Source of the DNA: Candidatus Omnitrophota bacterium
GTDB taxonomy: Bacteria; Omnitrophota; Gorgyraeia; Gygaellales; Profunditerraquicolaceae
DNA: 64,000 nt
Direction: 5' to 3'
Assembly: GCA_028715785.1 (NCBI GenBank)
Contig: JAQURC010000002.1
Location: forward strand, 8,402 to 72,401
The notes under the pieces were generated by a model. The model saw nothing but the letters and a program-made list of their open reading frames with translations, did no database searches and was not told where the DNA came from. Both the position numbers and the translations under genes were made by a program. Of this stretch, positions 4,545 to 62,602 are shown piece after piece (the first letter of the stretch is position 1; each line of letters begins with the position of its first letter).

Positions 4545-4549
4545 AAAAT

Positions 4550-9581: not shown

Positions 9582-9652
9582 AGGGGCGTCGGTTAATGGC
9601 AAACCAACGGTCTCCAAAACCGTGACTGCAGGTTCAAGTCCTGCCGCTCCTG
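9582..9652 (+). tRNA. tRNA-Trp (anticodon CCA)
   Basis: AGGGGCG acceptor, anticodon loop CTCCAAA, T-arm GGTTCAAGTCC; canonical position upstream of secE. Confidence 0.85.
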
Positions 9653-10555: not shown

Positions 10556-10557
10556 CT

Positions 10558-10983
10558 ATGGCAAAGGCAATCAAGGCGCAGATTAAATTACACGTTCCGG
10601 CAGCGCAGGCAAACCCGGCGCCTCCGGTAGGCCCGGCATTAGGCCAGCATGGCGTGAATATTATGCAGTTCTGCAAGCAGTTTAATGACCAGACCAAAGG
10701 CAGGGACGGATTGATTCTTCCGGTAGTAATCAGTGTTTTTGAGGACAGGACCTTTACCTTTATTATTAAGAGCCCTCCATCATCTATTCTGCTAAAAAGG
10801 GCGGCGAATTTAGCCAAGGCGTCAGGGACAAGCGGAAAAGAGACCATCGGCAAAGTAACCAGGAAGCAGGTTGAAGAAATTGCCAAACTAAAGTTAGCGG
10901 ATTTAAATACCAATGACATGCAGCAGGCAATCAAGAGCATAGAAGGCACTGCCCGCAGTATGGGTATTGCCATTGAAGGATAA
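10558..10983 (+). CDS. rplK: 50S ribosomal protein L11
   Basis: [22 protein letters not shown] motif. Confidence 0.95.
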
Positions 10984-10986
10984 AGC

Positions 10987-11667
10987 ATGAAAACGCAGAG
11001 CAAAAGATATAAAGAATCGGTTAAACAGGTAGAGAAAGATAAATTTTATCAGTTAAAAGAAGCGGTGGCCATATTGAAAAAACTGCCTAAGCCAAAATTT
11101 GACGGCTCCGTCGACCTGCATTTTAATCTGGGCGTGGATACCAAAAAGAGCGATCAGATGATCCGCGGGACGGTTGTGCTTCCGCATGGGACCGGAAAAA
11201 AGGTGCGCGTGGCAGTATTCTGTAAAGGCGAGCATGAGCGCCAGGCCAGGGAGGCAAAGGCGGATTATGTCGGCGGCACGGAGTTGATGGATAAAGTTGC
11301 CGCGGGGTTTCTTGATTTTGACTGCGCCATCGCCACTCCTGAAATGATGAAAGATTTAAGCAAGCTTGGCAAAGTCCTGGGCCCGCGGGGCCTGATGCCC
11401 AGCCCTAAGACCGGCACGGTGACCAATGATATTTCAAAAGCCATCGAAGACGTGAGGAAGGGCAAGGTTGAGTTTCGCGTGGATAAGCAGGGCGGGATGC
11501 ATTTATCGATAGGCAAGATTTCTTTTGACGAAAACCAGATAAATGATAATGCTTCCAAAGTGATCGAGGCAGTTAACGAGTCAAGGCCGGCTTCGGTAAA
11601 AGGTAAATTTGTGAAAAGTCTGAGCATAACCGTTTCCATGAACCCGGGATTAAAGATTATCTGCTAA
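10987..11667 (+). CDS. rplA: 50S ribosomal protein L1
   Basis: L1 family, 226 aa, rplK-rplA synteny. Confidence 0.95.
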   Translation: MKTQSKRYKESVKQVEKDKFYQLKEAVAILKKLPKPKFDGSVDLHFNLGVDTKKSDQMIRGTVVLPHGTGKKVRVAVFCKGEHERQAREAKADYVGGTELMDKVAAGFLDFDCAIATPEMMKDLSKLGKVLGPRGLMPSPKTGTVTNDISKAIEDVRKGKVEFRVDKQGGMHLSIGKISFDENQINDNASKVIEAVNESRPASVKGKFVKSLSITVSMNPGLKIIC

Positions 11668-21042: not shown

Positions 21043-23139
21043 ATGAGAAAGATTCCTTTAGATAAAATTAGAAATATTGGAATAATTGCCCACATCGACG
21101 CCGGAAAAACTACCACCAGCGAGCGCGTTTTGTTTTATACCGGTAAAAATTATAAGATTGGCGAGGTGCATGACGGGGCAGCGACTATGGACTGGATGGT
21201 CCAGGAGCAGGAGAGGGGCATTACGATTACCGCTGCCGCTACTACTTGCAAATGGAAGGATATCACGATTAATTTAATCGATACTCCCGGCCACGTAGAT
21301 TTTACTATCGAAGTGGAAAGATCGTTGAAGGTTCTGGACGGTGCGGTAGTTGTTTTTTGCGGAGTCGGCGGAGTTGAACCGCAATCAGAAACCGTATGGC
21401 GCCAGGCGGACCGTTACGGCGTTCCAAGGATCGCCTTTGTTAATAAAATGGACCGCACCGGTTCGGATTTTTTTGCGGCAATTGACCAGATGCATGAAAG
21501 ACTGGGGGCTAATGTTGCGGCTATTCAGCTTCCCGTTGGCAGGGAGAGCGGTTTTAACGGCCTGGTGGATCTGGTTGAAAAAAAATTAATCCATTACGAA
21601 GAAATTCTAGGTAAAGAATTTGAAGTAAAAGAGCTTCCGGAAGAGATGTTTGGCGATTTTGAAAAATACCGCGCGATTCTTGTCGAAAAAGTCGCTGAAG
21701 CGGATGATAAGATCATGGAAGATTATTTACAAGGTAAGACTGTAACTAACGAAGAGTTAAAAGCAGCGATACGCAGGAGCGTACTTATAAATAAATTTGT
21801 GCCGGTACTTTGCGGTTCAGCTTTTAAGAATAAAGGCGTGCAGATGGTTTTGGACGCGGTCAGAGACTATCTTCCTTCTCCGCTTGATGTCCCTCCGGTA
21901 AAAGGCACAAATCCGGATTCCGGAGAATTTGAAGAGGTAAAGGCCGATGATAATGCTCCTTTTGTCGCGTTATGTTTTAAGGTAGCCACCGATCCTTTTG
22001 TGGGAAAAATATTTTTTGTAAGGATGTATTCCGGAACGCTTACTTCAGGAACTTATATTTACAATGCTTCAAAGAGAGAAAGAGAGCGGGTTACTAAGAT
22101 TGTTAAATTGCATGCTAACCATCAGGAGGTAACTGACAGTATTTCCACAGGAGATATTGCTGCCTTTGTCGGTTTAAAAGATACAAAAACCGGAGATACC
22201 CTTTGTACCGAGAAAAATCCTATTCTTGTTGAGGCGATGCGTTTTCCGGATCCGGTTATCCAGCAGGCAATCGAACCTAAGTCCAAGGACGCCCAGGAAA
22301 AATTGGGTATGGCCATGCATAAGCTGGAAGATGAAGATCCGTCATTTAGAGTTACCTATAATCAGGAAACAGGCCAAACACTTATCGCCGGGATGGGGCA
22401 GTTACATTTGGAAATTATTGTCGATAGAATTTTACGCGAGTTTAATGTTGAGGCTACCGTGGGCGCTCCGCAGGTTGCTTATCGGGAAACGATCAGGAAA
22501 AGTGTTTCTAGCGTCGGAAAATTTATTTCCCAATCCGGCGGCCGCGGCCAATACGGCCATTGCGTTATTGAGATGAGCCCGCAAGAGACTCCCGGGACCG
22601 GTATTACATTCGAAGATAAAATTAAGAGCGGGGCAATTCCGCGCGAATTTATTCCTGCGGTAAAACAGGGAGTAATGGGTGCTGTCAAAAACGGGACATT
22701 AGCAGGATATCCGGTTACCGACGTCAAAGTCGTTTTGGTCGACGGGTCATTTCATGAAGTTGATTCTTCAGAGTTAGCGTTTAAAATGGCAGGGAGCATC
22801 GCGTTTCAGGATGGAATGAAAAAAGCCAATCCTGTTTTATTGGAACCGATTATGGATATTGAAGTTGTGGTACCTGAAGAATTTATGGGCCAGATTATCG
22901 GTGATCTCAGCAGCCGGCGCGCAAAAATAATTGCCCTTGGTCAGAGGCTGAACTTGCGTACTATCCGAGCCAATGTTCCGCTGTCGGAAGTTTTTAATTA
23001 CGCAACCGTAACAAGATCCTTGACACAAGGCCGTGCATCATATACAATGGAACCTTCTTTTTACAGCGAAGTTCCAGCACAGGTAGCTGAAAAAGTTATT
23101 CAAGGCTCAACCAATACAAAAGAAAGAAAAACTTTTTAA
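21043..23139 (+). CDS. fusA: elongation factor G
   Basis: 698 aa; G-domain [22 protein letters not shown]. Confidence 0.97.
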
Positions 23140-23145
23140 AAAAAC

Positions 23146-23196
23146 ACACCCCGCGCTTATAAGGAATTGCGCGGGTGTGCCCCTAGGGGCAAGGAG
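23146..23196 (+). repeat. gene-proximal two-hairpin+SD element (upstream of tuf)
   Basis: CACCCCGCGCTTATAAGGAATTGCGCGGGTGTGCCCCTAGGGGCAAGGAGG. Confidence 0.75.
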
Positions 23197-23204
23197 GATA
23201 AAAA

Positions 23205-24407
23205 ATGGCTAAAGAAAAATTCGTAAGGAGCAAGCCGCACGTAAATATCGGGACCATCGGGCACATCGATCACGGTAAAACTACCCTTACCGCCGCTATC
23301 TGCAATGTTCTTTCAAAGCTTGGAAAAGCTACTGCCAGGGATTACGCGGATATCGCCAAAGGCGGAACAGTAAGAGATGACACCAAGGTTGTGACTATCT
23401 CTGTCGCTCACGTAGAATATGAAACAGACAGCCGCCACTACGCGCATATTGACTGCCCGGGCCACGCGGATTATATCAAGAACATGATTACCGGCGCCGC
23501 CCAGATGGACGGGGCAATTTTGGTTGTCTCGGCAGCTGACGGCCCCATGCCTCAGACTAGAGAGCATATACTTTTAGCCCGCCAGGTAAACGTGCCGGCG
23601 ATGGTCGTGTTCATGAATAAGGTTGATTTAGTTGATGACAAAGAGCTTCTGGACCTGGTGGAGATGGAGATCAGGGACCTTTTAACCAAATATGGGTATC
23701 CGGGAGACAAAACTCCGATTATCCGCGGCAGTTCAAATAAAGCCTATGCGGCAACTGACCCTAATAGCCCGGAGGCCAAACCGATTCTGGATTTAATGAA
23801 AGCGGTTGATGAGTTTATTCCTCTTCCCCCCAGGGAGTTAGACAAACCTTTACTTATGGCAGTCGAAGATGTTTTTAGTATTGAAGGCAGGGGTACCGTG
23901 GCAACCGGAAGGATCGAGCGCGGTAAGGTTAAAGTCGGAGAAGAAGTCGAGATTATCGGTTTAAGGCCGGAGCCCAAGAAATCCGTGGTTACCGGAATCG
24001 AAATGTTCCGCAAGCTATTGGATGAAGGTCAGGCCGGAGATAACGTCGGTTTGCTTTTAAGAGGCGTGGAAAAGAATGATGTTGAGCGTGGGATGGTTAT
24101 CGCCGCTCCAAAATCCATTCATCCTCATACGAAATTCAAGGCCCAGGTTTACATCCTGACCAAAGAAGAAGGCGGAAGGCACACTCCATTTTTCAAGGGG
24201 TACAGGCCTCAGTTCTATTTTCGCACAACAGATGTAACCGGTACAGCCGGACTTCCCGCTAACGTCGAAATGGTTATGCCCGGTGACAACGTGGCTTTGG
24301 ATGTCGAATTGATTACTCCGATTGCCATTGAGAAGGAATCGCGTTTTGCTATCCGTGAAGGCGGCCATACAGTGGGAGCAGGCGTAGTTACCGAGGTTAT
24401 TGCATAA
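23205..24407 (+). CDS. tuf: elongation factor Tu
   Basis: 400 aa; [22 protein letters not shown]. Confidence 0.97.
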
Positions 24408-39574: not shown

Positions 39575-40750
39575 ATGAAGATAGATACTCGGCTTGCTGA
39601 GCGCCTAAAAAAAATCCATCCTTCCTCGACGCTGGCGATAACCTCTAAAGCTAAAAAGCTTAAAAGCGAAGGCAAGGATATCGTTAATTTTGCCGCCGGT
39701 GAGCCGGATTTCGATACGCCGGATTTTATAAAGGAGGCGGCAATTGCGGCAATTACTTCCGGATTCACCAAGTATACCCCCACCACAGGCACCCCCGAAC
39801 TAAAAAAACTCATTTGTCAGAAATTCAAAAAAGATAATTCATTAGAATATGCGCCGGATCAGATCATAGTTTCTAACGGGGCAAAGCACAGTATTTATAA
39901 CGCCCTGATGGTGCTTTTAAACCGCTCTGATGAAGCGCTTATCCCTTTGCCTTATTGGGTCAGTTATCCTGAAATGGCCGGCCTCTGCGAGGCAAGCGCC
40001 CGTTTCATAAAGACGACTGCCGCAAATAATTTTAAAATTTCCGCAAAAGACCTCCAGAAGCACATTACCACTAAAACCAAAGTACTTATTCTCAATAGCC
40101 CGTCAAACCCGGCCGGGTCGGTTTATAGCCGCCAGGAGCTTGAAGAGATAGCTAAAATCTGCGTGGATAAAAATATTTTTGTAATCAGCGATGAGATTTA
40201 CGAGAAGATTACTTTTGACGGCTTAAAGCATAATTCGATTGCCAGCTTCAATAAAGATATTTATAACCTCACCATTACGGTTAACGGCCTGTCTAAAAGC
40301 CATTCCATGACCGGCTGGCGTATCGGCTATCTGGGCGCGCCAAGCGATATTGCCAATGCCATTTCAAACCTGCAGGATCATTCAACCTCCAATCCTAATT
40401 CCATCGCCCAGAAAGCAGCGGTGGCTGCGTTAAGCGCGCCGGAGGATTTTACGCATGAATTGTGCCGGGAGTTTGCCAAAAGGAGGGATTACCTGGCCGC
40501 AAGGCTAAAGGGGATTAAGAATTTGAATTTTTCTCTGCCGCAGGGCGCGTTTTATATGTTTTGCGATATTTCTAAAACCGGCCTTGATTCATTGACTTTT
40601 TCCAGGCGTCTGCTTGAGGAAGAATATGTCAGCCTTATTCCCGGAATAAGTTTCGGCATGGATGACCATATAAGGATAAGTTTTGCCACAAGCGTCGAAG
40701 AACTGCAAAAAGGCATGGATAGGATAGAAAAGTGGATAACAAAACTATGA
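39575..40750 (+). CDS. class I pyridoxal-phosphate aminotransferase (aspartate aminotransferase-like)
   Basis: 391 aa; SNPSNPAGSVYS and GLSKSHSMTGWRIGY (Lys-PLP motif). Confidence 0.8.
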   Translation: MKIDTRLAERLKKIHPSSTLAITSKAKKLKSEGKDIVNFAAGEPDFDTPDFIKEAAIAAITSGFTKYTPTTGTPELKKLICQKFKKDNSLEYAPDQIIVSNGAKHSIYNALMVLLNRSDEALIPLPYWVSYPEMAGLCEASARFIKTTAANNFKISAKDLQKHITTKTKVLILNSPSNPAGSVYSRQELEEIAKICVDKNIFVISDEIYEKITFDGLKHNSIASFNKDIYNLTITVNGLSKSHSMTGWRIGYLGAPSDIANAISNLQDHSTSNPNSIAQKAAVAALSAPEDFTHELCREFAKRRDYLAARLKGIKNLNFSLPQGAFYMFCDISKTGLDSLTFSRRLLEEEYVSLIPGISFGMDDHIRISFATSVEELQKGMDRIEKWITKL

Positions 40751-51192: not shown

Positions 51193-51696
51193 ATGATCCA
51201 GGTTTACACGGGTAATGGCAAAGGTAAAACTACCGCGGCAATGGGGCTGGCTTTACGGGCTGCCGGAGCGGGTTTTAACGTTTATATCTGCCAGTTTGCC
51301 AAAGGGCATCTTTGCAGCGAGCATAAAGCGCTGAAAAAATTAAAGAATATAAAGGTCGAACAGTTTGGCAGGGATTGTTTTGTCAGGCGTAAGCCTGTGC
51401 AGGCTGATATCATATTAGCCCATCAGGGCCTGGAGAAGGCAAAAAAAATTATTGCTTGTAAAAAATATCGTTTAGTTATTCTGGATGAAATTAACATTGC
51501 TTTGAAGTTAAGGCTGGTATCCATTAAAGAGGTGCTGGATTTAATTAAGCATACACCGAAGAATATGGAATTAGTGCTTACTGGCCGGGATGCGCCCGCG
51601 CGGATTACTAAGGTTGCGGACCTAGTTAGCGATATAAAAGACCTTAAACATTATTATCTTAAAGGAATAAAAGCCCGCCGGGGAATTGAGCTCTGA
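51193..51696 (+). CDS. cobO: cob(I)yrinic acid a,c-diamide / corrinoid adenosyltransferase (CobA/CobO/BtuR family)
   Basis: MIQVYTGNGKGKTTAAMGLALRAAGAGF P-loop signature. Confidence 0.8.
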   Translation: MIQVYTGNGKGKTTAAMGLALRAAGAGFNVYICQFAKGHLCSEHKALKKLKNIKVEQFGRDCFVRRKPVQADIILAHQGLEKAKKIIACKKYRLVILDEINIALKLRLVSIKEVLDLIKHTPKNMELVLTGRDAPARITKVADLVSDIKDLKHYYLKGIKARRGIEL

Positions 51697-51826: not shown

Positions 51827-51854
51827 TTGACAAATTATTGTTGGGTGTTAAAGT
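51827..51854 (+). promoter_or_regulatory. candidate sigma70 promoter (TTGACA-16-TAAAGT) driving riboswitch 1
   Basis: Hexamer match upstream of riboswitch. Confidence 0.35.
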
Positions 51855-51867
51855 AATTAGACAATTT

Positions 51868-52100
51868 GGTAAACTTATAGGTTAAGGGAAATCCGTAAAT
51901 ACGGATGCGGTCCCGCCGCTGTAAGGGCAGACGAAAACTGCATAAGTCACTGTCTTTAGTGTTAAAGACGGGAAGACGCAGTAAGTAGGTTAGAAGCCCA
52001 AGCCAGAAGACCTGCCTATATAAAGAATGGTAATGCCTCGTGGAATGGGTTAAGAAATATTTGGGTGCAACCCGTCAGCAACTGTGGCGGGTTTTTTGTT
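51868..52100 (+). promoter_or_regulatory. cobalamin (B12) riboswitch with intrinsic-terminator expression platform
   Basis: AAGGGAA, CCCGCCGCTGTAAG, GTCACTG (B12 box), GGGAAG, GACCTGCC conserved blocks; terminator ACCCGTCA-GCAACTG-TGGCGGGT + TTTTTTGTTT at 52069-52100. Confidence 0.6.
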
Positions 52101-52110
52101 TAATATCTAT

Positions 52111-52941
52111 ATGAAAAAAATAATACTGATAAGTTTTTTTGTTTGCTGGCTGGCAAATACAGCCTTTGCCGCGCCCCGTTACATTTCTCTTGCGCCTTCA
52201 ACCACCGAGATCCTTTTTGCCCTGGGTTTAGACACGGAGATCGTAGGTGTAAGCACCTATTGTAATTATCCCGAGCAGGTAAAAAATAAAACCAAGGTTG
52301 GGGATTTCAGCAGCCCCAGCATCGAGAAAATAATTTCATTAAAGCCCGATTATATTTTTTGCACCGGGCTTGAGCAGGCTCCGGTTATCGCCCAGTTAAG
52401 AGGATTGGGTTTTAAAGTTTATGTGGCGGATCCGGCAAGTTTTGAAGAGCTATTTAAATCAATCAAGGAAATCGGAGAGATAACTAAAAAAACAGTTCAA
52501 GCTTCGGTCTTGATTGGAGAAATGCAAGCCCAGATCGCTGAGGTAACTTCCGCGGTAAAGCTTGTTCCCCGGGAAAAGAGAGTCAGGGTTTTTATTGAAA
52601 TCTGGCATGAGCCGTTGATGACTGCCGGAGGCGGCTCTTTTGTGGATGAATTGATTGCTTTAGCCGGCGGTATTAATATCGCCCACGATACGCTCAGGCC
52701 TTATTCTAATTATAGCGCGGAGAGAGTGGTTAGTTCTAATCCCCAGTGTATTATTATGGTTTATATGGACAAAGAGGCGCCGCTAAAGTTAATTGGACAG
52801 CGTTTTGGCTGGGATAAAATAGACGCGGTGAGAAACCAGCGCGTATTTAACGATATCAGCCCGGATATCTTGCTTCGGCCGGGGCCGCGATTAACTCTGG
52901 GTTTAAAGCAGCTTTACGGAAAACTATACTCTAAACAATGA
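52111..52941 (+). CDS. btuF: periplasmic cobalamin/siderophore-type substrate-binding protein (BtuF-like)
   Basis: Signal peptide MKKIILISFFVCWLANTAFA; class III binding-protein family; start corrected from 52084 (inside terminator). Confidence 0.75.
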   Translation: MKKIILISFFVCWLANTAFAAPRYISLAPSTTEILFALGLDTEIVGVSTYCNYPEQVKNKTKVGDFSSPSIEKIISLKPDYIFCTGLEQAPVIAQLRGLGFKVYVADPASFEELFKSIKEIGEITKKTVQASVLIGEMQAQIAEVTSAVKLVPREKRVRVFIEIWHEPLMTAGGGSFVDELIALAGGINIAHDTLRPYSNYSAERVVSSNPQCIIMVYMDKEAPLKLIGQRFGWDKIDAVRNQRVFNDISPDILLRPGPRLTLGLKQLYGKLYSKQ

Positions 52942-53897
52942 TTACGTATCTAAAGAAAAGTTTTTTAATATTATTTTCCTTGCTTTGTATAGCCGTAGTT
53001 TTTGCCTTGATCAAAGGCGCGGTAAATATCCCGCTGGCTGACCTTTTGTTCAGGGATAACCGGCCTATTTTAAACTTGAGGCTATTGCGCGTAATCGCGG
53101 CCCTTCTGGTCGGAAGCGGCCTGGCAGTTTCGGGCATAGCCCTGCAGGCAATTTTAAGAAATCCGTTGGCTGAGCCGTATCTTTTAGGGACTTCCAGCGG
53201 AGCCGGCCTGGCGGCGATAATCGCGGTGATTATGGGCGTCTCAAGGATATATATGCCTTTGGCAGCTTTTTTAGGGGCGGCTCTAAGTATTATTATAGTT
53301 TATAGTTTATCCCGCGAAAGAGGGGTGATTGCCGATAAGTCGCTGATCCTCTCCGGAGTAATTGTTTCGGTTGCTTTTTCTGCGATAATCGTATTTCTGG
53401 TGTCCTTGTTTGGTAATGAGGCAATGCATGAGATGAACTGGTGGTTATGGGGCAGCCTGCAGGTCTATGATCATAAGCTGCTTATCCTGGTTGCTGTTCC
53501 TGTTTTGTTAGGTATAGGCATAATTTATTTTTTTGCCCAGGATCTGAATGCGATCAGTATGGGGGAAGAAGAGGCAGTTCATTTAGGTATCGATACTCAG
53601 AATATAAAGAGGATTCTGATTTTTATCACCGCTTTGATTACCGCCAGCCTTATTTGTATCTGCGGAATAATCGGATTTGTCGGTTTGATCGTGCCGCACA
53701 TGATGCGGCTTTTGGTTGGCCCTAATCATAGAATACTTATTCCTACCACTTGTTTGGCTGCTTGCGTATTTATGGTGGTCTGCGATCTTATAGCGCGCAC
53801 GTTATTTACGCCGCTTGAAATACCGATAGGAGTGATTACGGCGATAATCGGAGCCCCTGTATTTATCATTCTTTTGAAAAAAGGCAGAAGGATCTAA
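52938..53897 (+). CDS. btuC: FecCD-family ABC permease (BtuC-like)
   Basis: 319 aa polytopic membrane protein, FecCD motifs. Confidence 0.8.
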   Translation: MITYLKKSFLILFSLLCIAVVFALIKGAVNIPLADLLFRDNRPILNLRLLRVIAALLVGSGLAVSGIALQAILRNPLAEPYLLGTSSGAGLAAIIAVIMGVSRIYMPLAAFLGAALSIIIVYSLSRERGVIADKSLILSGVIVSVAFSAIIVFLVSLFGNEAMHEMNWWLWGSLQVYDHKLLILVAVPVLLGIGIIYFFAQDLNAISMGEEEAVHLGIDTQNIKRILIFITALITASLICICGIIGFVGLIVPHMMRLLVGPNHRILIPTTCLAACVFMVVCDLIARTLFTPLEIPIGVITAIIGAPVFIILLKKGRRI

Positions 53898-54689
53898 ATG
53901 GGCGCATTGTTAAGAATAAATAACCTCTATGGCGGATATCATAAAAAAGATATTATTAAAGGATTGTCCCTGGATATAAATGAGGGTGATTTTTTGGTGA
54001 TTATCGGGCCTAACGGTTCCGGAAAAACCACTCTTCTTCGCCTGGCAAGCCGGGTGCTCAAATTAAAAAGCGGAGGAGTTTTTTACCAAGATGAGGATAT
54101 TTTCCGGATAGATCTGAAGGAATTTTGCAGGCAGGTGGCTTTTGTCTCCGGCGATACCGCGACGGGTTTTCCGCTTACGGCCATGGAGTTGGTTTTGATG
54201 GGAAGGATCCCGCATTTAAAGAGGCTGCAGTTTGAGACAAAAAAAGATATCCAAATTGCTCAAGAGATGCTTGTTTTAGCCGATGCCTGGGAGTTGCAGG
54301 ATAAGCGTATCGATGAATTAAGCGCCGGAGAGCTCCAGAGAGTCGTTCTTGCCCGGGCCCTGGCGCAGGAGCCGCGGCTTTTATTTCTGGATGAACCGAC
54401 CGCGCATTTAGATATCGGGCATCAAATACAGATCCTGGATTTATTAAAAAAACTTAACCGCAAAAATAACCTTACGATCGTGATGATCCTGCATGACCTG
54501 AATTTAGCCAGCGTTTATTCTAACCGGATCGCTCTCCTTGATAAAGGGGTTATTTTTAAAGAAGGCAGCCCCGAGGAAGTGCTGACATACCAAAATATCG
54601 AGGCGGTTTATAAAACCGTAGTTTTGGTGAATAATAATTCTTTGACCGGCAAGCCCAATGTAGTTTTAGTTCCGGGAGAAAACCGATGA
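53898..54689 (+). CDS. btuD: ABC transporter ATP-binding protein (BtuD-like)
   Basis: GPNGSGKTT Walker A, LSAGELQRV signature, LFLDEPT Walker B. Confidence 0.85.
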   Translation: MGALLRINNLYGGYHKKDIIKGLSLDINEGDFLVIIGPNGSGKTTLLRLASRVLKLKSGGVFYQDEDIFRIDLKEFCRQVAFVSGDTATGFPLTAMELVLMGRIPHLKRLQFETKKDIQIAQEMLVLADAWELQDKRIDELSAGELQRVVLARALAQEPRLLFLDEPTAHLDIGHQIQILDLLKKLNRKNNLTIVMILHDLNLASVYSNRIALLDKGVIFKEGSPEEVLTYQNIEAVYKTVVLVNNNSLTGKPNVVLVPGENR

Positions 54690-55288
54690 CCACCAGGCTT
54701 GTTTTAATCCGTCACGGAATAACTGAATGGAATAAAGACCGGCGTTATTGCGGATGTAAGGATGTGAGTTTAAGCAGGCAGGGCAGGCTTCAGGCGGCTA
54801 AATTACGCAAGCGGTTTAATAAGAGCGCCGCCGATTTTGACAAGATTTATTGCAGTGATCGAAAGCGCGCGTTGCAAACCCGGGCCATAATTTTTGGCAG
54901 GAGTGAATTTATCAGGCTAAATGGCTTAAGAGAAATTAATTTCGGGGTGTTCGAGGGGCTAAAGCACGAAGAAATTATGGAAAAATTTCCCGCTGTTTAT
55001 AGGAGGTGGCTGGCTGATCCCTATAAAGCGCGGATTCCGCAAGCCGAGCATATGCGGGTTTTTAAAAAACGGGTCCAGAATGCCATTAAAAAGATACTCC
55101 AAGCTAACTCCGGAAAAACTATTGCCGTGGTTTGTCACGGCGGAGTAATCGGTATACTGGTAAGCGGTATATTAAAGAGCAGGGATTTTTGGAAATACGT
55201 GCCTTCCGCGGCAAGCCTGACCATCGTAGAACATAAAGACAATAAATTCAGGATAAAGAAATTTAACGATAAGCGGCACCTTGGGTAA
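54686..55288 (+). CDS. cobC: alpha-ribazole phosphatase (histidine phosphatase family)
   Basis: RHGITEWN catalytic motif; cob context. Confidence 0.75.
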   Translation: MTTRLVLIRHGITEWNKDRRYCGCKDVSLSRQGRLQAAKLRKRFNKSAADFDKIYCSDRKRALQTRAIIFGRSEFIRLNGLREINFGVFEGLKHEEIMEKFPAVYRRWLADPYKARIPQAEHMRVFKKRVQNAIKKILQANSGKTIAVVCHGGVIGILVSGILKSRDFWKYVPSAASLTIVEHKDNKFRIKKFNDKRHLG

Positions 55289-55810
55289 ATGATGAATAAG
55301 GTAACTTTAATTTTAGGCGGGGCCAGAAGCGGAAAAAGCACTTATGCCTTGAAGCTGGCGGATAAATATAAAGAGGTGGCTTTTGTGGCAACCTGCCAGG
55401 CTTTGGATAAAGAGATGGAGGACAGGATTGAGCTGCATAAGAGGGCAAGGCCCAAGCATTGGCAGAGTTTTGAGGAGCCTAAAGATGTGGATTTACTGCT
55501 TAAGAAAATACCTGATATTTTTAATTGTATTGTTATCGATTGCTTGACGCTTTTGGTCTCAAATCTTCTTTTATCGGGTAGTAATCAAAAGGAAGTCGAG
55601 GATAAGGTTAAAAAAATACTTTCGGTTTTAAAAAATAAAAAAGCGCACGTAATAATCGTATCCAATGAGGTAGGCTTAGGCATAGTCCCAGAGCATAAAT
55701 TGGCAAGGGAATTCCGGGATATCGCCGGCAGGGTAAATCAACTCGTAGCCCGGCAGGCCGATGAAGTATGGTTTCTAGCCGCGGGCATACCTTTAAAAAT
55801 TAAAAACTAA
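55289..55810 (+). CDS. cobU: adenosylcobinamide kinase / adenosylcobinamide-phosphate guanylyltransferase
   Basis: LILGGARSGKS P-loop; about 170 aa CobU family. Confidence 0.85.
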   Translation: MMNKVTLILGGARSGKSTYALKLADKYKEVAFVATCQALDKEMEDRIELHKRARPKHWQSFEEPKDVDLLLKKIPDIFNCIVIDCLTLLVSNLLLSGSNQKEVEDKVKKILSVLKNKKAHVIIVSNEVGLGIVPEHKLAREFRDIAGRVNQLVARQADEVWFLAAGIPLKIKN

Positions 55811-55833
55811 AGAGAAAGGTAAAGGATAGAGGA

Positions 55834-56892
55834 ATGGAGAAACTTAGTTTGACGGTTAAAAAGATCACTGGGCCTAATCATAAACTTATGGAAGCTACCC
55901 AGATTAGGCTTGATAGCTTGACTAAACCTCTGGGAAGTTTAGGCAAATTGGAAGAATTGGCAAAACAGATCGTCGGGATTACGGGTAAGAATGAACCGGA
56001 ATTAAGTCAGAAAGTTATTTTTACCTTGGCCGCGGATCACGGCGTAACCGAAGAAGGAGTGAGCGCCTACCCGAAAGAAGTCACCGCGCAAATGGTCTAT
56101 AACTTTTTAAGGGGTGGAGCGGGAATAAATGTTTTAGCAAAACATACGGGAGCAAAAGTTGTCGTTGTGGATATAGGCGTCGCGGAAGATTTAAAACCCG
56201 ATCCCAGGCTGATTGTCAAAAAGGTTAATTATGGAACCAAGAATATGGCAAAGAGTGCGGCAATGACCAGAGAGGAAGCCATAAAAGCGATTGAAGCAGG
56301 CATCGAAATATTTAACGCGGAACTAAAAAACGGAATTGGTATTTTGGGCACGGGGGAAATGGGAATTGGAAACACTACCGCTGCCAGCGCGATTACCGCT
56401 TGTTTTACCAATAAGCCAGTTGAAGAAATAACCGGTAGGGGCGCAGGACTGAATGATTTGGGGTTAAAAAATAAAATTGATATTATTAAAAGATCACTAT
56501 TCTTAAATAAGCCGGATTCTTCTGACCCTATAGATGTTTTGTCTAAAGTGGGTGGATTTGAGATTGGAGGATTGGCCGGGATAATTTTAGCCGCCGCCGC
56601 CAATAATGTCCCGGTGATTATCGACGGGTTTATATCCGGCGCCGCGGCTTTAGTGGCTTTTAAGATTGAGCCGAAAGTAAAAGATTATATGATTGCCGCG
56701 CATTGTTCGGTAGAGGCAGGCCATCAGGTTATCCTGGAACATATTGGTTTAAAACCGCTTTTAGATTTAAATTTAAGGCTGGGGGAAGGCACGGGCGCGG
56801 CTCTGGGTATAGGATTAGCTGATGCGGCAATCAAGATCCTTACGCAGATGGCTACCTTTAAGAGTGCTAACGTATCGGAGAAGAAAGAATGA
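55834..56892 (+). CDS. cobT: nicotinate-nucleotide--dimethylbenzimidazole phosphoribosyltransferase
   Basis: GEMGIGNTTAASA signature. Confidence 0.9.
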   Translation: MEKLSLTVKKITGPNHKLMEATQIRLDSLTKPLGSLGKLEELAKQIVGITGKNEPELSQKVIFTLAADHGVTEEGVSAYPKEVTAQMVYNFLRGGAGINVLAKHTGAKVVVVDIGVAEDLKPDPRLIVKKVNYGTKNMAKSAAMTREEAIKAIEAGIEIFNAELKNGIGILGTGEMGIGNTTAASAITACFTNKPVEEITGRGAGLNDLGLKNKIDIIKRSLFLNKPDSSDPIDVLSKVGGFEIGGLAGIILAAAANNVPVIIDGFISGAAALVAFKIEPKVKDYMIAAHCSVEAGHQVILEHIGLKPLLDLNLRLGEGTGAALGIGLADAAIKILTQMATFKSANVSEKKE

Positions 56893-57638
56893 GCAGTTTT
56901 TTACTGGCAATACAATTTTTAACTATCCTGCCTTTGGGGGAAAAAAAGTTTAGCCCGGAAAAGCTGGCTTGGGCTTTAATCTATTTTCCCATAGTCGGTT
57001 TATTTTTAGGGGCAATACTTGCCGGGCTAAACATCTGTTTATCTTCTTTGGGTATTTCCGCTTTAGCCGTAAACATAATCTTGGTTATCGCTTTGGTTAT
57101 TCTTACCCGAGGAATACATTTAGACGGGCTGGCGGATACGACGGATGCTTTTTTAAGCGGCAAAGGGAAAGAAGAGACGCTTGAGATTATGCGCGATCCG
57201 CATATCGGGGTGATGGGTGCATTAAGCTTAATCAGCATCCTGATTTTAAAAATTGGCTTACTTTCATCGGTTAGCGCCGCGGTAAAACCCGCGGCTTTAA
57301 TGCTGATGTGTATCTCAGGCAGGTGGTCTGCTGTCCTAAGCATCTATTTATTTCCTTATGCCCGCCAGGAAGGAAAAGCAAAAGTATTTATCGAAGGGAT
57401 GAGCCTGAAGATCTTTATTATTTCGGCAATAATAGTTATTATTTGCGCGGCTATAGTTTTAAACATAGCGGGATTGGTTGTTTTATTGATTGTTTCCGGG
57501 TGCGCTTATATCATCGGCAGGTTTATTTGTAGTAAGATCGAAGGAGTAACCGGAGATACTTTGGGAGCGGTAATTGAGTTGACCGAAGTAATTACTTTAT
57601 TAATTATTTGTATTGGGCAAGGAGTAGTCAATGGATAA
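56889..57638 (+). CDS. cobS: adenosylcobinamide-GDP ribazoletransferase (cobalamin synthase)
   Basis: 249 aa polytopic membrane protein, CobS family, after cobT. Confidence 0.85.
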   Translation: MSSFLLAIQFLTILPLGEKKFSPEKLAWALIYFPIVGLFLGAILAGLNICLSSLGISALAVNIILVIALVILTRGIHLDGLADTTDAFLSGKGKEETLEIMRDPHIGVMGALSLISILILKIGLLSSVSAAVKPAALMLMCISGRWSAVLSIYLFPYARQEGKAKVFIEGMSLKIFIISAIIVIICAAIVLNIAGLVVLLIVSGCAYIIGRFICSKIEGVTGDTLGAVIELTEVITLLIICIGQGVVNG

Positions 57639-58305
57639 GCGCAAGGCGATAGCTTCTTGGAGCGGAGGTAAAGACAGCTGCCTGGCATGTTATCGGGCAA
57701 TGCAGCAGGGTTATGATGTAAAACTGCTTTTAAATTTTATCTCCCGGGAATCAAAACGCGGATGTTTCCACGGAATCGAAGGCAGGTTATTGAAGTTTCA
57801 GGCGGATTTAGTCGGCATTCCTCTTGAACAAAAAGAAGTCAGCCCGGATATGCATAAATATGAAGAGGAGTTTAAGTGCGCGGTTACTGAGCTCAGAGGC
57901 AAGGATATTGGCTCAATGGTTTTTGGCGATATCTACCTATTGGAGCATGAAAGCTGGATTGAGCGGGTCTGCGGCGATTTAAAAATCAATGCCTTGGAGC
58001 CGCTTTGGAATAATTCTCCGGAAAACATCATCGATGAGTTTTTAAGCGCGGGATTTAAGGCGATCATTGTCAGTTGTAAAGCGGATGTAATGGGTAAAGA
58101 GTTTCTTGGTTGTTATATTGATAAAGGGTTGATTGAAGAACTGAAGAAAAAAAATATCTGTCCCTGCGGGGAGAAAGGAGAATTCCATACTTTAGTGGTT
58201 GATGGGCCGATATTCAGGAAGCCGATTAAGATACTCGAGGCTGAACCTGTAATTAAGGAAAGTTTTTGGAAGCACTGGTTTTTAGATATTAAAAAATTCG
58301 AATAA
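57631..58305 (+). CDS. PP-loop ATP pyrophosphatase of the diphthine-ammonia ligase / MJ0570 (DUF71) family
   Basis: SGGKDS PP-loop; 224 aa; overlaps cobS stop by 8 nt (operonic). Confidence 0.7.
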   Translation: MDKRKAIASWSGGKDSCLACYRAMQQGYDVKLLLNFISRESKRGCFHGIEGRLLKFQADLVGIPLEQKEVSPDMHKYEEEFKCAVTELRGKDIGSMVFGDIYLLEHESWIERVCGDLKINALEPLWNNSPENIIDEFLSAGFKAIIVSCKADVMGKEFLGCYIDKGLIEELKKKNICPCGEKGEFHTLVVDGPIFRKPIKILEAEPVIKESFWKHWFLDIKKFE

Positions 58306-58321
58306 TTTATAGAGAAGAACA

Positions 58322-58452
58322 AACCAGATAGGCGGAGGAAATCCTGGTGTAATCCCAGGTACTGTCGCGCAACGGTAATCCCGCAAGGGTAGTCCGGTCG
58401 ACCACCTATCGCAAGGCCTGCCTGCCGGCAGGCAGGTAAGTACTCTCGCAGA
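58322..58452 (+). promoter_or_regulatory. cobalamin (B12) riboswitch upstream of btuB
   Basis: GGAAATCCTGGTGTAATCCCAGGTACTGTCGCGC (GGTG-AATCC / ACTGT core), GCAAGGCCTGCC; 10-bp palindrome CCTGCCTGCC/GGCAGGCAGG. Confidence 0.6.
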
Positions 58453-58468
58453 AGAGAAAGGGATTAAA

Positions 58469-60355
58469 ATGAAAAATATTTGCAAGAAATCGCTCATACC
58501 GGCATTGCTGGTTATGATCCTGTCAGGAATTTCATGGGCAGAAGAAGGGCAAGATATACATGATTTGGAGAAGATAATCGTTACCGCAACAAGGACAGAG
58601 GCAAGTCAGTATTCTACAGGTAGTTCTGCTACGGTAATAACCGCAGAAGAGGTTGGTCAAACAGGCAAAGATGAGTTCTCTGACCTGTTAAGGGATGTTC
58701 CGGGAGTTACGGTTTCTCAGTCGGGAAGCATCGGAGGTTTGACTAATGTTTATCTTCGTGGATCTAAGCCCGGCCACACATTAGTTATGGTTGATGGAGT
58801 GGAGCTTAACGATCCCATGAGTACCGATCGTTCCTTTGATTTTTCCAATCTAACCATGGATAATATTGAGCGTATTGAAGTGATCCGTGGGCCGCAGTCT
58901 GCCCTTTACGGTTCTGATGCTATGGCCGGCGTAATTAATATTATTACTAAAAAAGGCAGGGGGAAACCGGAGTTTAGTAGTTCCTTTGAAGGCGGCGCAC
59001 ACAATACATTTAGAGAAAATTTGACTTCAAGCGGCAATATAGATAAATTTAATTATTCCCTGTCTGTTTCGCGCCTTGATTCCGGCGGTATTTCCGCGGC
59101 AGCAGGAGGTTCTGAAAAAGATCCCTATCATAATAACGCTATCTCCTCTAGGATAGGGTATAAGGTTTTTGATAACAGCGAATTGAGTTTAGTTGCCCGC
59201 TATACGAATAGTAAGACTTCTATCGACAATGGCGCTTATGATGACGATCCTAATGATACTCTTTGGTCGAAGGATCTTGCCACTAGGTTGGCATTTGACC
59301 AGGCAATAAATTACTGGTGGAACCATTGTCTGTCATTTTCTTATAATGATGTCCGCCGCAAGGGTCGTAACGACAAGGATCCGTCGCACCCGGATGATTA
59401 TTCCAGCGATTGGTATAAAGGTAACATTAAAAAGGTTGAATGGCAGCACAATATTTCTCCTGCGAAATGGAATACTCTTACCGCTGGTTTTGAGTATGAA
59501 AGAGAAAGCGGATCATCTTATTATGAATCGGATAGTTCTTTTGGTCCTTTCTTAAGTAAGCAAGACAGAAAGAGTGTTGATAATAAAGGGTACTATTTTC
59601 AGGACCAGTTTAAGTTTTGGGAGAAACTTTTTATTACTCCCGGATTAAGGATCGACGATCACGAACTTTTCGGCGCTGAAACTACCTATAAAATATCCGC
59701 GGCCTATCTTATTCCCCAGACAGGAACTCGTCTTAAAGGTAACTGGGGCACAGGGTTTAAGGCACCGTCTCTTTATCAACTTTATTCAAGCTACGGCGAT
59801 ACTAGTCTCAAGCCGGATAAAAGCAGAAGTTATGATTTTGGGTTTGAGCAGAGTTTTTTTAAGGATAAACTATCTTTTGATTTAGCGTATTTTCATAATG
59901 ACTTTAGGAATTTGGTTGATTATGATTATAATACTAATAAGTATAAAAATATCGGCAGAGCAAGTACTAAGGGTTTTGAAGTCGGAGCAAAATTTTCGCC
60001 AGTTGAAAATCTAACAATAGGAGGAAACTTTACCTATACTGACACGCAAGATAAAGAAACTGGCCTTGAATTATTAAGGCGGCCGAAGAGGCAGTTTAAT
60101 TTTGACCTCAACTGGGGTTTTCTGCCCAACGCCAATCTTAACCTGGGGTTAAATCATGTGGGCAGCCGCAAAGATTATGTGTATATTACCGATAAATCCT
60201 ATACGATTGTCCGTCTGGCTTCTTCTTATAATGTAACAAAAAACTTCCAAATTTTTGGCAGGATAGAGAATCTTTTTGATAAGGAGTATCAGGAAGTTAA
60301 CGGCTATGCTACGCTCGGGCGTTCATTCTACGGAGGCATTAAGGGTAAATTCTAA
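58469..60355 (+). CDS. btuB: TonB-dependent outer-membrane receptor (BtuB-like)
   Basis: Signal peptide, TonB box EKIIVTATR, plug plus beta-barrel, C-terminal Phe. Confidence 0.85.
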   Translation: MKNICKKSLIPALLVMILSGISWAEEGQDIHDLEKIIVTATRTEASQYSTGSSATVITAEEVGQTGKDEFSDLLRDVPGVTVSQSGSIGGLTNVYLRGSKPGHTLVMVDGVELNDPMSTDRSFDFSNLTMDNIERIEVIRGPQSALYGSDAMAGVINIITKKGRGKPEFSSSFEGGAHNTFRENLTSSGNIDKFNYSLSVSRLDSGGISAAAGGSEKDPYHNNAISSRIGYKVFDNSELSLVARYTNSKTSIDNGAYDDDPNDTLWSKDLATRLAFDQAINYWWNHCLSFSYNDVRRKGRNDKDPSHPDDYSSDWYKGNIKKVEWQHNISPAKWNTLTAGFEYERESGSSYYESDSSFGPFLSKQDRKSVDNKGYYFQDQFKFWEKLFITPGLRIDDHELFGAETTYKISAAYLIPQTGTRLKGNWGTGFKAPSLYQLYSSYGDTSLKPDKSRSYDFGFEQSFFKDKLSFDLAYFHNDFRNLVDYDYNTNKYKNIGRASTKGFEVGAKFSPVENLTIGGNFTYTDTQDKETGLELLRRPKRQFNFDLNWGFLPNANLNLGLNHVGSRKDYVYITDKSYTIVRLASSYNVTKNFQIFGRIENLFDKEYQEVNGYATLGRSFYGGIKGKF

Positions 60356-60502: not shown

Positions 60503-62602
60503 ATGGGTTTTGACCTGTTGTTGTTGGCGCCGGTTGGTTCGATATTGGCTTTGAGTTTCGCTTTTTATCTGGCCTTGAGTATTTTGAAAATGGATGAGGG
60601 CACGGATAAGATGAAGGAGATTGCCCAGGCGGTGCGCGTTGGCGCCCAGGCCTATTTAAAAAGGCAGTATCTGGGTGTCTCGATGTTTTTTATTGTGGTG
60701 TTTTTCATTCTTCTGGCGATGGCTATGAAGAATTATCTGGTCATCTTTGTGCCGTTTGCTTTTTTAACCGGCGGTTTCTTTTCAGGCTTGTCCGGTTTTA
60801 TCGGGATGACTATTGCCACCCAGTCCTCTAACCGTACCGCCCAAGCCGCGTCTAAGAGTTTGAATTCCGGCCTGCGCGTTGCTTTTTCCAGCGGGGCAGT
60901 TATGGGGCTTACCGTGGTCGGTTTAGGGCTATTGGATTTGAGTATCTGGTATTATTTTTTAAATTGGTATTATTCTTGCCATCCTACCCCGCTGGGAACG
61001 GATAAGATCGCGGCAATTACTTCAACTATGCTTTGCTTTGGTATGGGCGCCAGCTCGATGGCGCTTTTTGCCAGGGTCGGCGGAGGTATTTTTACTAAAG
61101 CCGCGGATGTCGGCGCGGACTTAGTCGGGAAGGTTGAGGCGGGAATCCCCGAGGACGATCCGCGCAACCCGGCAGTTATCGCTGATAATGTCGGCGATAA
61201 TGTCGGCGATGTCGCGGGTATGGGCGCTGACCTTTACGAGTCTTATGTCGGTTCCATTGTCGCCACTTCGGCTTTAGGCGTTGCCGCCGGCCTCGGTGTT
61301 GCCGGGGTGACTGTGCCGATGGTTATGGCCGCGGTAGGGGTTATCTCTTCGATTATCGGAACATTTTTTGTTAAAAGCGGAGAACAGGCCAGCCAAAAAG
61401 TTCTTTTGGCAGCTTTACGTAAAGGAGTCTTTACCAGTTCATTTATCGTCGCGGTAATCTCATTTTTTCTGGTTAAAGCAACATTGGGCGCCGGGAATTT
61501 AGGCGTTTATTGGTCGGTATTGGCGGGTTTAGTTGCCGGAGTATTGATTGGTTTGTGTACGGAGTATTATACTTCCAGCGGTTTTAAGCCAACGCGTTCA
61601 ATTGCCGATGCTTCTTTAACCGGCCCGGCAACCGTAATTATCGGCGGTATCGCGGTAGGGATGATGTCCACGGCTATTCCGGTAATTATCGTATGCATTG
61701 CTATTTTAATAAGTTTTTATTTATCCGGCGGGGCGGCTAATTTTAACGCCGGCCTTTACGGTATCGCCATTTCAGCAGTAGGGATGCTTTCTACTTTAGG
61801 TATAACTTTGGCTACTGATGCTTATGGCCCGGTCGCGGATAATGCCGGAGGAAACGCCGAGATGTCAAAGCTTCCTCCTGAAGTAAGGAAGAGAACTGAT
61901 GCCCTGGATGCTTTGGGTAATACGACCGCGGCAACCGGTAAAGGTTTTGCCATTGGTTCAGCAGCCCTGACAGCATTAGCTTTGATTGCCGCGTATAAAG
62001 ATCAAGTTTTGCTTTTTGGCAGGGATATTAATGCCAGTATGATGAATCCTACGGTGTTAATAGGTTTATTTCTAGGCGGAATGCTGCCGTTTTTATTCTG
62101 CTCTATGACTATGCGCGCCGTAGGAAGGGCAGCGGGTAAAATTGTCGTGGAAGTCCGCCGGCAGTTTAAGGAGATCATTGGTCTGATGGAAGGCACAGCT
62201 AAGCCTGATTACGCGCGTTGCGTAAGCATTGCCACTGCGGCAGCGCAAAAAGAAATGATCGCTCCTTCACTTTTAGCAATCGCGGCTCCAATAGGTGTGG
62301 GGTTACTGATAGGTATTGACGCGGTTGCCGGGCTTCTGGTTGGGGCAACGGTTACCGGATTTGTTTTAGCGGTTATGATGGCTAATTCCGGAGGCGCCTG
62401 GGATAATGCCAAGAAGTTTGTGGAAGAAGGGCATCATGGCGGTAAAGGCTCAAATGCCCATAAAGCTACCGTGGTTGGCGATACAGTGGGCGATCCCTTT
62501 AAAGATACTTCCGGGCCAAGCTTAAATATTTTGATCAAGCTTATGTCCATGGTCTCCATTGTTTTTGCCTCATTTATTATTAAAAATACGTTATTTAAGT
62601 AA
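60503..62602 (+). CDS. hppA: membrane-bound H+(or Na+)-translocating pyrophosphatase
   Basis: 699 aa; GDNVGD (twice) and DNAGG signature motifs. Confidence 0.9.

Follow-up and report, generated by a model that had tools for sequence, protein, structure and literature searches.

What does an enzyme of the diphthine-ammonia ligase (Dph6) family do at the end of a cobalamin (B12) salvage operon? The question is raised by a 224-aa open reading frame (ORF; 57631-58305, + strand, ATG start) in a 64,000-nt stretch of a Candidatus Omnitrophota genome (assembly GCA_028715785.1, contig JAQURC010000002.1, positions 8,402 to 72,401 of the forward strand), referred to below as the window. An original prediction, made from the DNA letters, had described this gene as a Dph6/MJ0570-family PP-loop ATPase embedded in a cobC-cobU-cobT-cobS operon and had suggested that it amidates or ligates a carboxylate of a corrinoid or of a lower ligand. 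The follow-up analysis described here indicates that the protein is, to judge from its signature, gene context and tree placement, an Omnitrophota member of the already published DUF71-B12 subgroup, and hence that its association with B12 is not new. By the same evidence it is a Dph6 paralogue that would no longer act on elongation factor 2 (EF-2), encoded by what is predicted to be the final and translationally coupled gene of an operon under the control of a B12 riboswitch. The gene very probably functions in corrinoid salvage, and formation of a corrinoid amide is the reaction proposed below.

Membership of the PP-loop family is clear. The ATG is preceded at 7 nt by an AGGAG Shine-Dalgarno sequence, and the product matches PF01902 (Diphthami_syn_2, formerly DUF71) over nearly its entire length (E=8.9e-57, 192.5 bits, the cutoff being 23.2; residues 5-223 of 224, corresponding to profile positions 2-217 of 219). 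PF28410, which appears in precomputed annotations, brings no additional domain, since newer Pfam uses it for this family's C-terminal half. The PP-loop reads SWSGGKDS (S11-S16), and the ATP-phosphate residues S11, G12, G13, K14, D15, H47, and T187 are all kept, with at least 87 % conservation among 203 homologues; H47 and T187 are the counterparts of two conserved phosphate ligands, His48 and Thr189 of PF0828. Identity to the crystallised Dph6 proteins PF0828 (3RJZ) and PH1257 (2D13) is about 27-30 % over some 200 residues. A structure predicted from a shallow alignment of close homologues reached a mean confidence (pLDDT) of 62, with less than 50 in the C-terminal half, which is adequate for fold recovery and too poor for pocket analysis or docking. 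Used as a Foldseek query, this model returned 3RK1, 2D13, and 3RJZ (PF0828/PH1257) as top and only strong matches (E ~1e-14, template-modelling (TM) score 0.73-0.79), a fold that is also backed, apart from the moderate model, by sequence homology to 3RJZ (E=1.8e-23). The nearest homologues are 80-95 % identical and nearly all 224 aa long, and the named ones come almost exclusively from Candidatus Omnitrophota metagenome-assembled genomes. No identical copy of the window protein turned up in public assemblies, and its 88 % identical relative P0031 served in its place. Comparison with two Omnitrophota orthologues (88 % and 80 % identity) gave a ratio of nonsynonymous to synonymous substitutions (dN/dS) of ~0.065, and the gene is therefore under purifying selection. 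A possible Fe-S or metal site of the TtuA/NcsA type, formed by the subgroup-specific cysteines C17, C114, and C179, was considered and dropped, as C17 is replaced in ~40 % of the 203 homologues, C114 and C179 being ~85-90 % conserved.

The protein nonetheless departs from Dph6 at a position proposed to be catalytic. PF0828 and PH1257 read GEGGEFET where the window protein reads GEKGEFHT (G180-E-K-G-E-F-H186-T187), which places His186 opposite Glu188 and leaves the Dph6 motif EGG[E/D]xE188 unmatched (E181-K-G-E-F-H186). An exhaustive search of 1.84 billion representatives yielded 4113 relatives; among the best 150 of these, His occupies the Glu188 position in all 121 that include the motif region, as it does in 72 of 72 sequences derived from the loci surveyed below. 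No solved structure was found for any of these His-type members. In a neighbour-joining tree of the 72 His-type sequences with PF0828 and PH1257, built with these two Dph6 outgroup sequences only and without bootstrap, a long branch separates the His-type clade from Dph6; the window protein groups with those of loci L001 and L004 inside a B12-linked clade, and B12-linked loci are spread throughout. The Dph6 equivalog model TIGR03679 remains the best NCBIfam match, at 149.6 bits, below its cutoff of 197.3. Thus, the clustering with translation-factor-modifying enzymes against which the original prediction was to be checked is not what was observed. In addition, the window encodes a bacterial EF-G (domains III, IV, and C) together with EF-Tu, and therefore the Dph6 substrate, EF-2, is not present in the host. 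Bacterial homologues from Omnitrophota (P0007, P0011, P0021, P0029, P0031, and others) are nevertheless named "diphthine--ammonia ligase" in NCBI, nr, and JGI, a few newer records preferring "Dph6-related ATP pyrophosphatase"; since bacteria lack diphthamide, the former name is a systematic and propagating misannotation of bacterial His-type members. These database names and the identity of the best NCBIfam model are what speaks for a genuine diphthine-ammonia ligase in the window. That reading, or one in which the gene is an unrelated passenger, is extremely improbable in view of the score under the equivalog cutoff, the His in place of the catalytic Glu, the EF-G-containing host without EF-2, the B12 context kept across phyla, the overlap with cobS, and the low dN/dS.

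The link to B12 salvage is first visible in the operon itself. As had been claimed, cobC, cobU, cobT, and cobS precede the DUF71 gene in this order, and they are themselves preceded by btuF-btuC-btuD. Since cobS ends at 57638, its overlap with the DUF71 gene is exactly 8 nt, again as predicted. The successive spacings from btuF to DUF71, the last gene, are -4, 0, -4, 0, +23, -4, and -8 nt, and a scan of the + strand from 54620 to 58468 revealed no terminator-like site. Co-transcription of DUF71 with cobC-cobU-cobT-cobS, another element of the original prediction, is thus well supported by the gene layout, and the prediction was also right in placing the enzyme outside canonical nucleotide-loop assembly.

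Where the prediction falls short is in novelty, as the association of such genes with B12 was published in 2012, when DUF71/COG2102 was divided into Dph6 and "DUF71-B12" (de Crecy-Lagard et al., Biol Direct 7:32; PMC3541065). The latter comprises all bacterial members and second copies in some archaea; 75 of 102 members adjoin B12 (btuCDF-type) transporter genes and 18 of 102 adjoin cbiB, the signature ENGE[F/Y]H replaces EGG[E/D]xE188, and conservation does not extend to the residues with a predicted part in EF-2 binding (PMC3541065). DUF71-B12 and CbiZ are reported to be strictly anticorrelated in bacteria, and the role favoured at the time was that of a bacterial CbiZ analogue, acting in remodelling during pseudo-B12 salvage (PMC3541065). 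The same study reported an AsnB-DUF71 fusion in a few archaea and read it as an ammonia source for Dph6 (PMC3541065). The window protein has the features of this subgroup, namely the signature E181-K-G-E-F-H186, clustering with B12 genes, and a position in the tree away from Dph6.

The neighbourhood survey called for by the original prediction extends this picture. One genome per GTDB species was searched with the pattern GExGE[YF]HT[FLV]V, which selects His-type members by design, and gave at least 599 species-level matches; the best 80 of these loci, i.e., those most similar to the window protein, were taken with 10-kb flanks, and the DUF71 ORF could be called in 78. Many contigs are short, and genes were labelled by BLAST clustering seeded with the window proteins, so that the counts are lower bounds. 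At least one recognised B12 gene lies within five genes of DUF71 in 53 of the 78 loci, which belong to many unrelated phyla; B12 linkage of homologues elsewhere is thereby confirmed. The taxa surveyed include Omnitrophota, Planctomycetota, Lentisphaerota, Nitrospirota, Desulfobacterota, Chloroflexota, Clostridia, Bathyarchaeia, and Methanosarcinales. Among the first 71 loci, to which the per-gene counts given here refer, at least 40 have two or more B12 genes near DUF71. The immediate neighbour is most frequently btuF or btuB (15 loci), followed by an Asn_synthase-domain protein (10), cobU (7), cobC (6), archaeal cobT (6), and cobS (5). Within five genes, btuF or btuB is found in 24 loci, btuD in 21, cobS in 20, btuC in 13, cobT in 12, cobU and cobD in 11 each, cobC and cbiB in 9 each, cobA in 8, cbiP and cobY in 6 each, and cobZ in 5. 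The core order cobC-cobU-cobT-cobS-DUF71-btuB recurs in L001, L002, L003, L004, and L081, with btuFCD upstream in all except L002; its carriers are Omnitrophota, Ca. Undivivens industriae (L003), and Planctomycetales. A cobalamin riboswitch heads the operon in 6 of 8 scanned DUF71 loci.

Some of the surveyed loci show a different arrangement. An Omnitrophota locus (L007) carries two His-type paralogues (7663-8388 and 10251-10943) on either side of btuB, in the order cobS - CbpA/CbpB - DUF71 - btuB - DUF71, and the two copies fall in separate parts of the tree. No B12 gene was recognised in L013, L016, L032, L038, L041, L064, L065, L071, L077, and L080, and the non-B12 loci include several Methanosarcinales and Dehalococcoidia copies, some of them beside aldehyde:ferredoxin oxidoreductase or Fe-S proteins. 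The His-type subgroup may not be monofunctional. Long His-type homologues also exist (P0127, 2455 aa; P0180, 523 aa; P0250, 463 aa; P0149, 276 aa; P0123, 458 aa), in which DUF71 occurs in tandem or is fused to DUF4116 repeats, a class-I S-adenosylmethionine (SAM) methyltransferase (P0250), or Cys_rich_CWC; the DUF4116-repeat proteins are apparently of eukaryotic type, the repeats being found in a giant multidomain protein that also has regions resembling kinases and DIT1/PvcA. Such fusions were set aside as functional clues, none of the partners being an obvious B12 enzyme.

Several partners recur in the B12-linked loci. The commonest non-transport neighbour is an Asn_synthase-domain-only (AsnS-like) protein, a second PP-loop adenylating enzyme, whose gene immediately precedes DUF71-B12 in no fewer than 10 loci of Nitrospirota, Desulfobacterota, Clostridia, and Bathyarchaeia (L030:9013-9978, L031:8842-9798, L039:324-1274, L048:9058-9993, L058:7219-8196, L062:3489-4475, L073:7997-8929, L076:2892-3875, L078:9072-10001, and L040:6832-7896). 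It is ~310 aa long, has no glutaminase domain, and bears a C-terminal CxxCG...HCxxCG zinc ribbon; an SGG[LI]DS PP-loop was found in 8 of 15 members of the cluster. Its gene mostly overlaps DUF71 or lies within a few nt of it, and in several loci the pair is located between btuB and btuFCD. A CbiP/CobQ-family gene is present in 7 DUF71 loci (L026:3586-5067, L044:7479-9008, L049:2431-3909, L051:1256-2785, L053:5914-7470, L069:1512-3101, and L070:3092-4606). Each of the seven qualifies as a CbiP equivalog, and no CbiA/CobB was found in the 10 kb to either side; in operons that are otherwise of the salvage type, one side-chain amidotransferase is thus retained, and not the a,c-specific one.

In at least five DUF71 B12 loci, a small peptide gene (CbpA) lies directly upstream of a radical-SAM/SPASM maturase, CbpB (TIGR04163, rSAM_cobopep; 686.6 bits, cutoff 375). 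The CbpA-like genes (L039:~1275-1380, L044:~1790-1905, L053:~7451-7600, L062:~4440-4545, and L007:~6120-6250) are found just 5' of the maturase gene (e.g., L039:1461-2855) and share the core ...YR(K/L/M)KC(K/R/A)xxG(N/T/A)GL(S/A)H(Y/F)..., in which Cys and His are invariant. The predicted pair looks like a module of the kind that makes ribosomally synthesised and post-translationally modified peptides (RiPPs), and a search for literature on the TIGR04163/CbpB peptide module found no paper. Lastly, in L001, the closest GTDB relative (an Omnitrophota locus with the same operon and an 80 % identical DUF71), the gene for a bona fide CbiR (10735-11508; NF041277, 254.6 bits, cutoff 105) separates DUF71 from btuB, a position at which the window and L081 have no cbiR; DUF71-B12 can thus be found together with an enzyme that is proven to initiate remodelling. 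Three of the B12-rich loci contain AP_endonuc_2 proteins. No CbiZ was found among the 25 largest families of each list drawn up for the 240 neighbour ORFs, a search that a single occurrence could escape.

Which reaction would fit such a context? To our knowledge, all characterised PP-loop enzymes adenylate a carbonyl or carboxyl group, and the intermediate so formed then reacts with a nucleophilic nitrogen or sulfur; NAD synthetase, Asn synthetase, and QueC are examples of enzymes with such intermediates. From these precedents and from the context we infer which substrate and nucleophile DUF71-B12 uses and in which direction its reaction runs, and propose, with a confidence that is about even at best, that a corrinoid carboxylate is adenylated and converted to an amide, either by re-amidation with ammonia or by ligation of an amine such as aminopropanol. 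In this scheme, BtuFCD, with BtuB adjoining, would import corrinoids, some of them incomplete or deamidated. ATP would be bound through the intact SGGKDS PP-loop, DUF71 would adenylate a carboxylate of the imported molecule, and ammonia or an amine would resolve the acyl-adenylate into an amide with release of AMP and pyrophosphate (PPi). Corrinoids that are unusable for salvage would thereby be turned into substrates for CobU and CobS, and the nucleotide loop would be rebuilt by CobU, CobT, CobS, and CobC, with CobA encoded upstream. The suggestion in the original prediction that scavenged cobinic or cobyrinic acids would be amidated makes chemical sense and is the one placed first here as well.

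Amide chemistry is that of the only characterised relatives, the Dph6 enzymes, which carry out the ATP-dependent amidation of a carboxylate (PMC3541065; see also PMC3585130). It can also count on the two recurrent partners that are predicted to be amidating enzymes themselves, the AsnS-like protein and CbiP. Relative to Dph6, the window protein has Tyr77 for Glu, Asp100 for Ala, His106 for Gln, Trp109 for Arg, Cys114 and Cys179 for Ala, and His186 for Glu. Two acidic residues are thus lost (at Tyr77 and His186), which in Dph6 plausibly face the trimethylammonium carboxylate of diphthine, and Asp100, His106, and Trp109 are gained; such exchanges would fit a new substrate.

Several points weigh against amide formation. 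The 2012 authors argued that an invariant His in place of the putative catalytic Glu may mean that the chemistry has changed, and the mutual exclusion with bacterial CbiZ that they described points to remodelling rather than amidation (PMC3541065). Nor is there an established need, among salvaging anaerobes, for the amidation of environmental corrinoids. About one third of the surveyed loci, including the Atribacterota sister clade (L005, L006), have no recognisable B12 neighbour. Moreover, the literature search turned up the 2012 paper and works that cite it, and no biochemical or genetic study of any DUF71-B12 member; a table from 2016 continues to list the subgroup as "function unknown, B12 salvage".

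A functional analogue of CbiZ would, in contrast, start remodelling by cleaving the nucleotide loop off a cobamide that does not suit the cell, for example pseudo-B12. A conceivable route is O-adenylation of the f-side-chain amide followed by hydrolysis of the activated imidate, leading to adenosylcobyric acid, onto which a new loop with the preferred base would be built. Adenylation of amide or ureido oxygens has precedents in QueC and argininosuccinate synthetase, and the invariant His could activate water; we know, however, of no PP-loop enzyme that acts as a net amidohydrolase. The genomic record is likewise divided. In favour of this role are the strict anticorrelation with CbiZ in bacteria and the clustering with cbiB (PMC3541065), as well as the presence of cbiB within five genes in 9 of our loci and of cobD in 11, and the lack of a recurring CbiZ family in the neighbour lists. 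Yet the window, L001-L004, and L081 show cobU with no cbiB or cobD in view, both of which would be needed after a CbiZ-type cleavage, although they may be encoded elsewhere. The L001 operon, being already equipped with CbiR, would have less need of a second remodelling initiator, an argument that is softened by the observation that ~20 % of CbiR taxa also carry CbiZ (Mok et al., 2020, mBio 11:e02507-20). Taken together, we regard the CbiZ-like role as unlikely.

Two other substrates would keep the amidation chemistry and direct it elsewhere. DUF71-B12 could have retained the ancestral amidation of a protein-bound carboxylate, with CbpA or a transport component as its target. Dph6 itself modifies a protein, at least five loci have CbpB and the Cys/His peptide gene at a distance of one to seven genes 5' of DUF71, the AsnS-like gene immediately precedes the peptide gene in L039 and L062, and Asn-synthase-like enzymes elsewhere are lasso-peptide cyclases (NCBIfam matches). 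But most DUF71-B12 loci, that of the window included, have neither CbpA/CbpB nor the AsnS-like gene and, as mentioned, the predicted EF-2-binding residues are not conserved, which makes a peptide or protein substrate very unlikely. A shade less probable still is the branch of lower-ligand and nucleotide synthesis. Here the enzyme might amidate or activate a base that bears a carboxylate, or else a by-product of CobT derived from nicotinate; it might also produce an alternative lower ligand, as had been suggested in the original prediction. Its support comes from DUF71 standing directly before cobT-cobS-cobY in 6 archaeal loci and following cobT-cobS in the window, and from the methyltransferase fusion of P0250. 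Against it, the strongest adjacency is to the uptake genes (btuF/btuB, 15 loci), many loci have transport genes and no cobT, and we know of no carboxylated lower-ligand precursor that needs amidation.

Formation of a corrinoid amide can be given a more specific form, which we put forward tentatively and consider somewhat unlikely as a whole. DUF71-B12 may be an amide-finishing or repair ligase of scavenging anaerobes that re-amidates corrinoids imported via BtuB/BtuFCD in a deamidated or incompletely amidated state, sometimes paired with the AsnS-like amidoligase and CbiP. If this is true, the side chains of corrin could be amidated by a path that is based on an adenylate and independent of CbiA/CbiP. 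Still more speculatively, in some lineages a RiPP-like module formed by CbpA, CbpB, the AsnS-like protein, and DUF71 could make a Cys/His corrinoid-binding peptide.

The remainder of the operon, entirely on the + strand, is of a classical salvage type. Its leader contains a cobalamin riboswitch (riboswitch 1; 51862-52033, RF00174, full length, 88.4 bits for a gathering threshold of 31.5, E=1.8e-20), preceded by a candidate sigma-70-like promoter (TTGACA-16-TAAAGT with a TG extension, 51827-51854; a pattern match only, 10/12 in a consensus scan) and followed by a terminator-like hairpin (52069-52093; 9-bp stem with 5 GC pairs, then TTTTGTTT, the T-run extending to 52103), this hairpin and T-run being the probable expression platform. 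The mechanically called GTG start of btuF (52084-52941; PF01497 Peripla_BP_2, E=2.7e-30), encoding a periplasmic corrinoid-binding protein, lies inside the hairpin and T-run, and the true start is therefore probably the ATG at 52111, from which the protein begins MKKIILISFF..., a signal-peptide-like N-terminus. Next come the genes for a BtuC-like ATP-binding cassette (ABC) permease (52938-53897; PF01032 FecCD, E=2.5e-86) and a BtuD-like ABC ATPase (53898-54689; PF00005 ABC_tran, E=3.8e-27). They are followed by those for a CobC-like alpha-ribazole phosphatase (54686-55288; PF00300, E=1.5e-53; best NCBIfam TIGR03162 ribazole_cobC, 141.9 bits, below the cutoff of 162.9), the adenosylcobinamide kinase/guanylyltransferase CobU (55289-55810; PF02283, E=1.8e-61; NF004469, 205 bits, cutoff 161), the nicotinate mononucleotide:base phosphoribosyltransferase CobT (55834-56892; TIGR03160, 459.3 bits, cutoff 319.3), and the cobamide synthase CobS (56889-57638; PF02654, E=4.6e-53; TIGR00317, 133.9 bits, cutoff 110). 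Just 5' of the leader, cobA/btuR (51193-51696; PF02572 CobA_CobO_BtuR, E=2.8e-60) encodes an ATP:corrinoid adenosyltransferase and holds an equal position in the relatives L081 and L001.

The 163-nt gap between DUF71 and btuB (58306-58468) harbours the second riboswitch that the original prediction had placed there. This compact element (58313-58441, + strand) reaches 37 bits with RF01482 (AdoCbl; local E=1.5e-5), short of the 50 bits set as gathering score, and escapes a default scan, Rfam at gathering threshold reporting only 51862-52033. It is nonetheless real, since it is conserved before btuB in four other lineages (L001:11590-11700, L004:9868-9985, L044:13930-14040, and L069:6490-6697) and 3 of the 5 pairs of its first stem still pair after two-sided, compensatory changes. 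As no intrinsic terminator follows it, control is probably translational. The downstream gene (58469-60355, + strand) encodes a BtuB-like TonB-dependent outer-membrane receptor (PF07715 Plug and PF00593 barrel; best NCBIfam TIGR01779 TonB-B12, 332 bits, below the equivalog cutoff). Directly 3' of it lies the gene for a membrane H+-translocating pyrophosphatase (60503-62602; PF03030, E=4.7e-272), whose presence is probably unrelated, even though a PP-loop enzyme would release PPi.

Elsewhere in the 64-kb window, tblastn and a motif scan found no AsnS-like gene and no CbpB, CbpA, cbiB, cbiP, or cbiR, and a cobD query (tblastn) gave only a weak, 26 %-identity match to a class I/II aminotransferase ORF (39575-40750; PF00155). 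Two tRNA genes are present (9343-9415 and 9582-9652). The EF-G and EF-Tu pair (21043-24407) lies within an apparent rpoBC/ribosomal-protein region; the B12 operon is located ~12 kb downstream of this conserved core block, the interval being occupied by housekeeping genes, among them those for isopropylmalate/isocitrate dehydrogenase and malate/lactate dehydrogenase as well as lipid A and glycosyltransferase genes.

The sharing and salvage of corrinoids have a shaping influence on many microbial communities, and most B12 users are unable to make the cofactor. His-type DUF71 is widespread (at least 599 species-level matches), from Omnitrophota to methanogens, in riboswitch-controlled B12 operons, and its reaction is a real gap in the map of corrinoid salvage, fourteen years after the prediction of the subgroup. 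The window adds another clean example, in which the question of the reaction is no easier to test than in cultured carriers.

How does the window gene compare with known systems? With the DUF71-B12 members described in 2012 (e.g., P. furiosus PF0295 and C. perfringens YP_695745), it shares the family, the signature, and the clustering with btuFCD and cobamide salvage genes. It differs in coming from Omnitrophota, which were absent from the genomes of that set, in having Lys at the second position of the motif (EKGEFH), where Asn was commonest, and in being joined to a cobC-cobU-cobT-cobS unit that has no cbiB in its vicinity. Dph6 (EC 6.3.1.14; yeast YLR143W, PF0828/3RJZ of P. furiosus, PH1257/2D13 of P. 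horikoshii) has the same fold (TM ~0.76) and PP-loop ATP site, and probably the same adenylation chemistry. The window protein is distinguished from it by Y77, D100, H106, W109, C114, and C179 at the substrate site, by the His in place of Glu188, and by a B12 salvage context in a bacterial host without EF-2 or diphthamide. More remotely, NadE, AsnB, QueC, and GMP synthetase share with DUF71 the SGGxDS PP-loop, an adenylate intermediate, and the N-type ATP pyrophosphatase superfamily, but they are distant structural relatives (Foldseek TM <=0.4) with other C-terminal domains.

Closer in proposed function are CobQ/CbiP and CobB/CbiA, which carry out the ATP-dependent amidation of corrin carboxylates that is suggested here for DUF71, and of which CbiP co-occurs with it in 7 loci; these enzymes, however, are unrelated to DUF71 in sequence and fold, combining a MinD/ParA-type nucleoside triphosphatase with a glutamine amidotransferase domain, proceed through a phosphorylated intermediate, and depend on glutamine. 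CbiZ has been proposed to occupy the same niche as DUF71-B12, the early processing of imported corrinoids, and is often encoded beside transport genes, but it shows no sequence or fold kinship to DUF71 and is ATP-independent and hydrolytic. CbiR is, like DUF71-B12, an accessory enzyme inserted in btu/cob salvage operons (Mok et al., 2020); in contrast to it, CbiR is an unrelated, experimentally characterised TIM barrel of the AP-endonuclease-2 type that is absent from the window.

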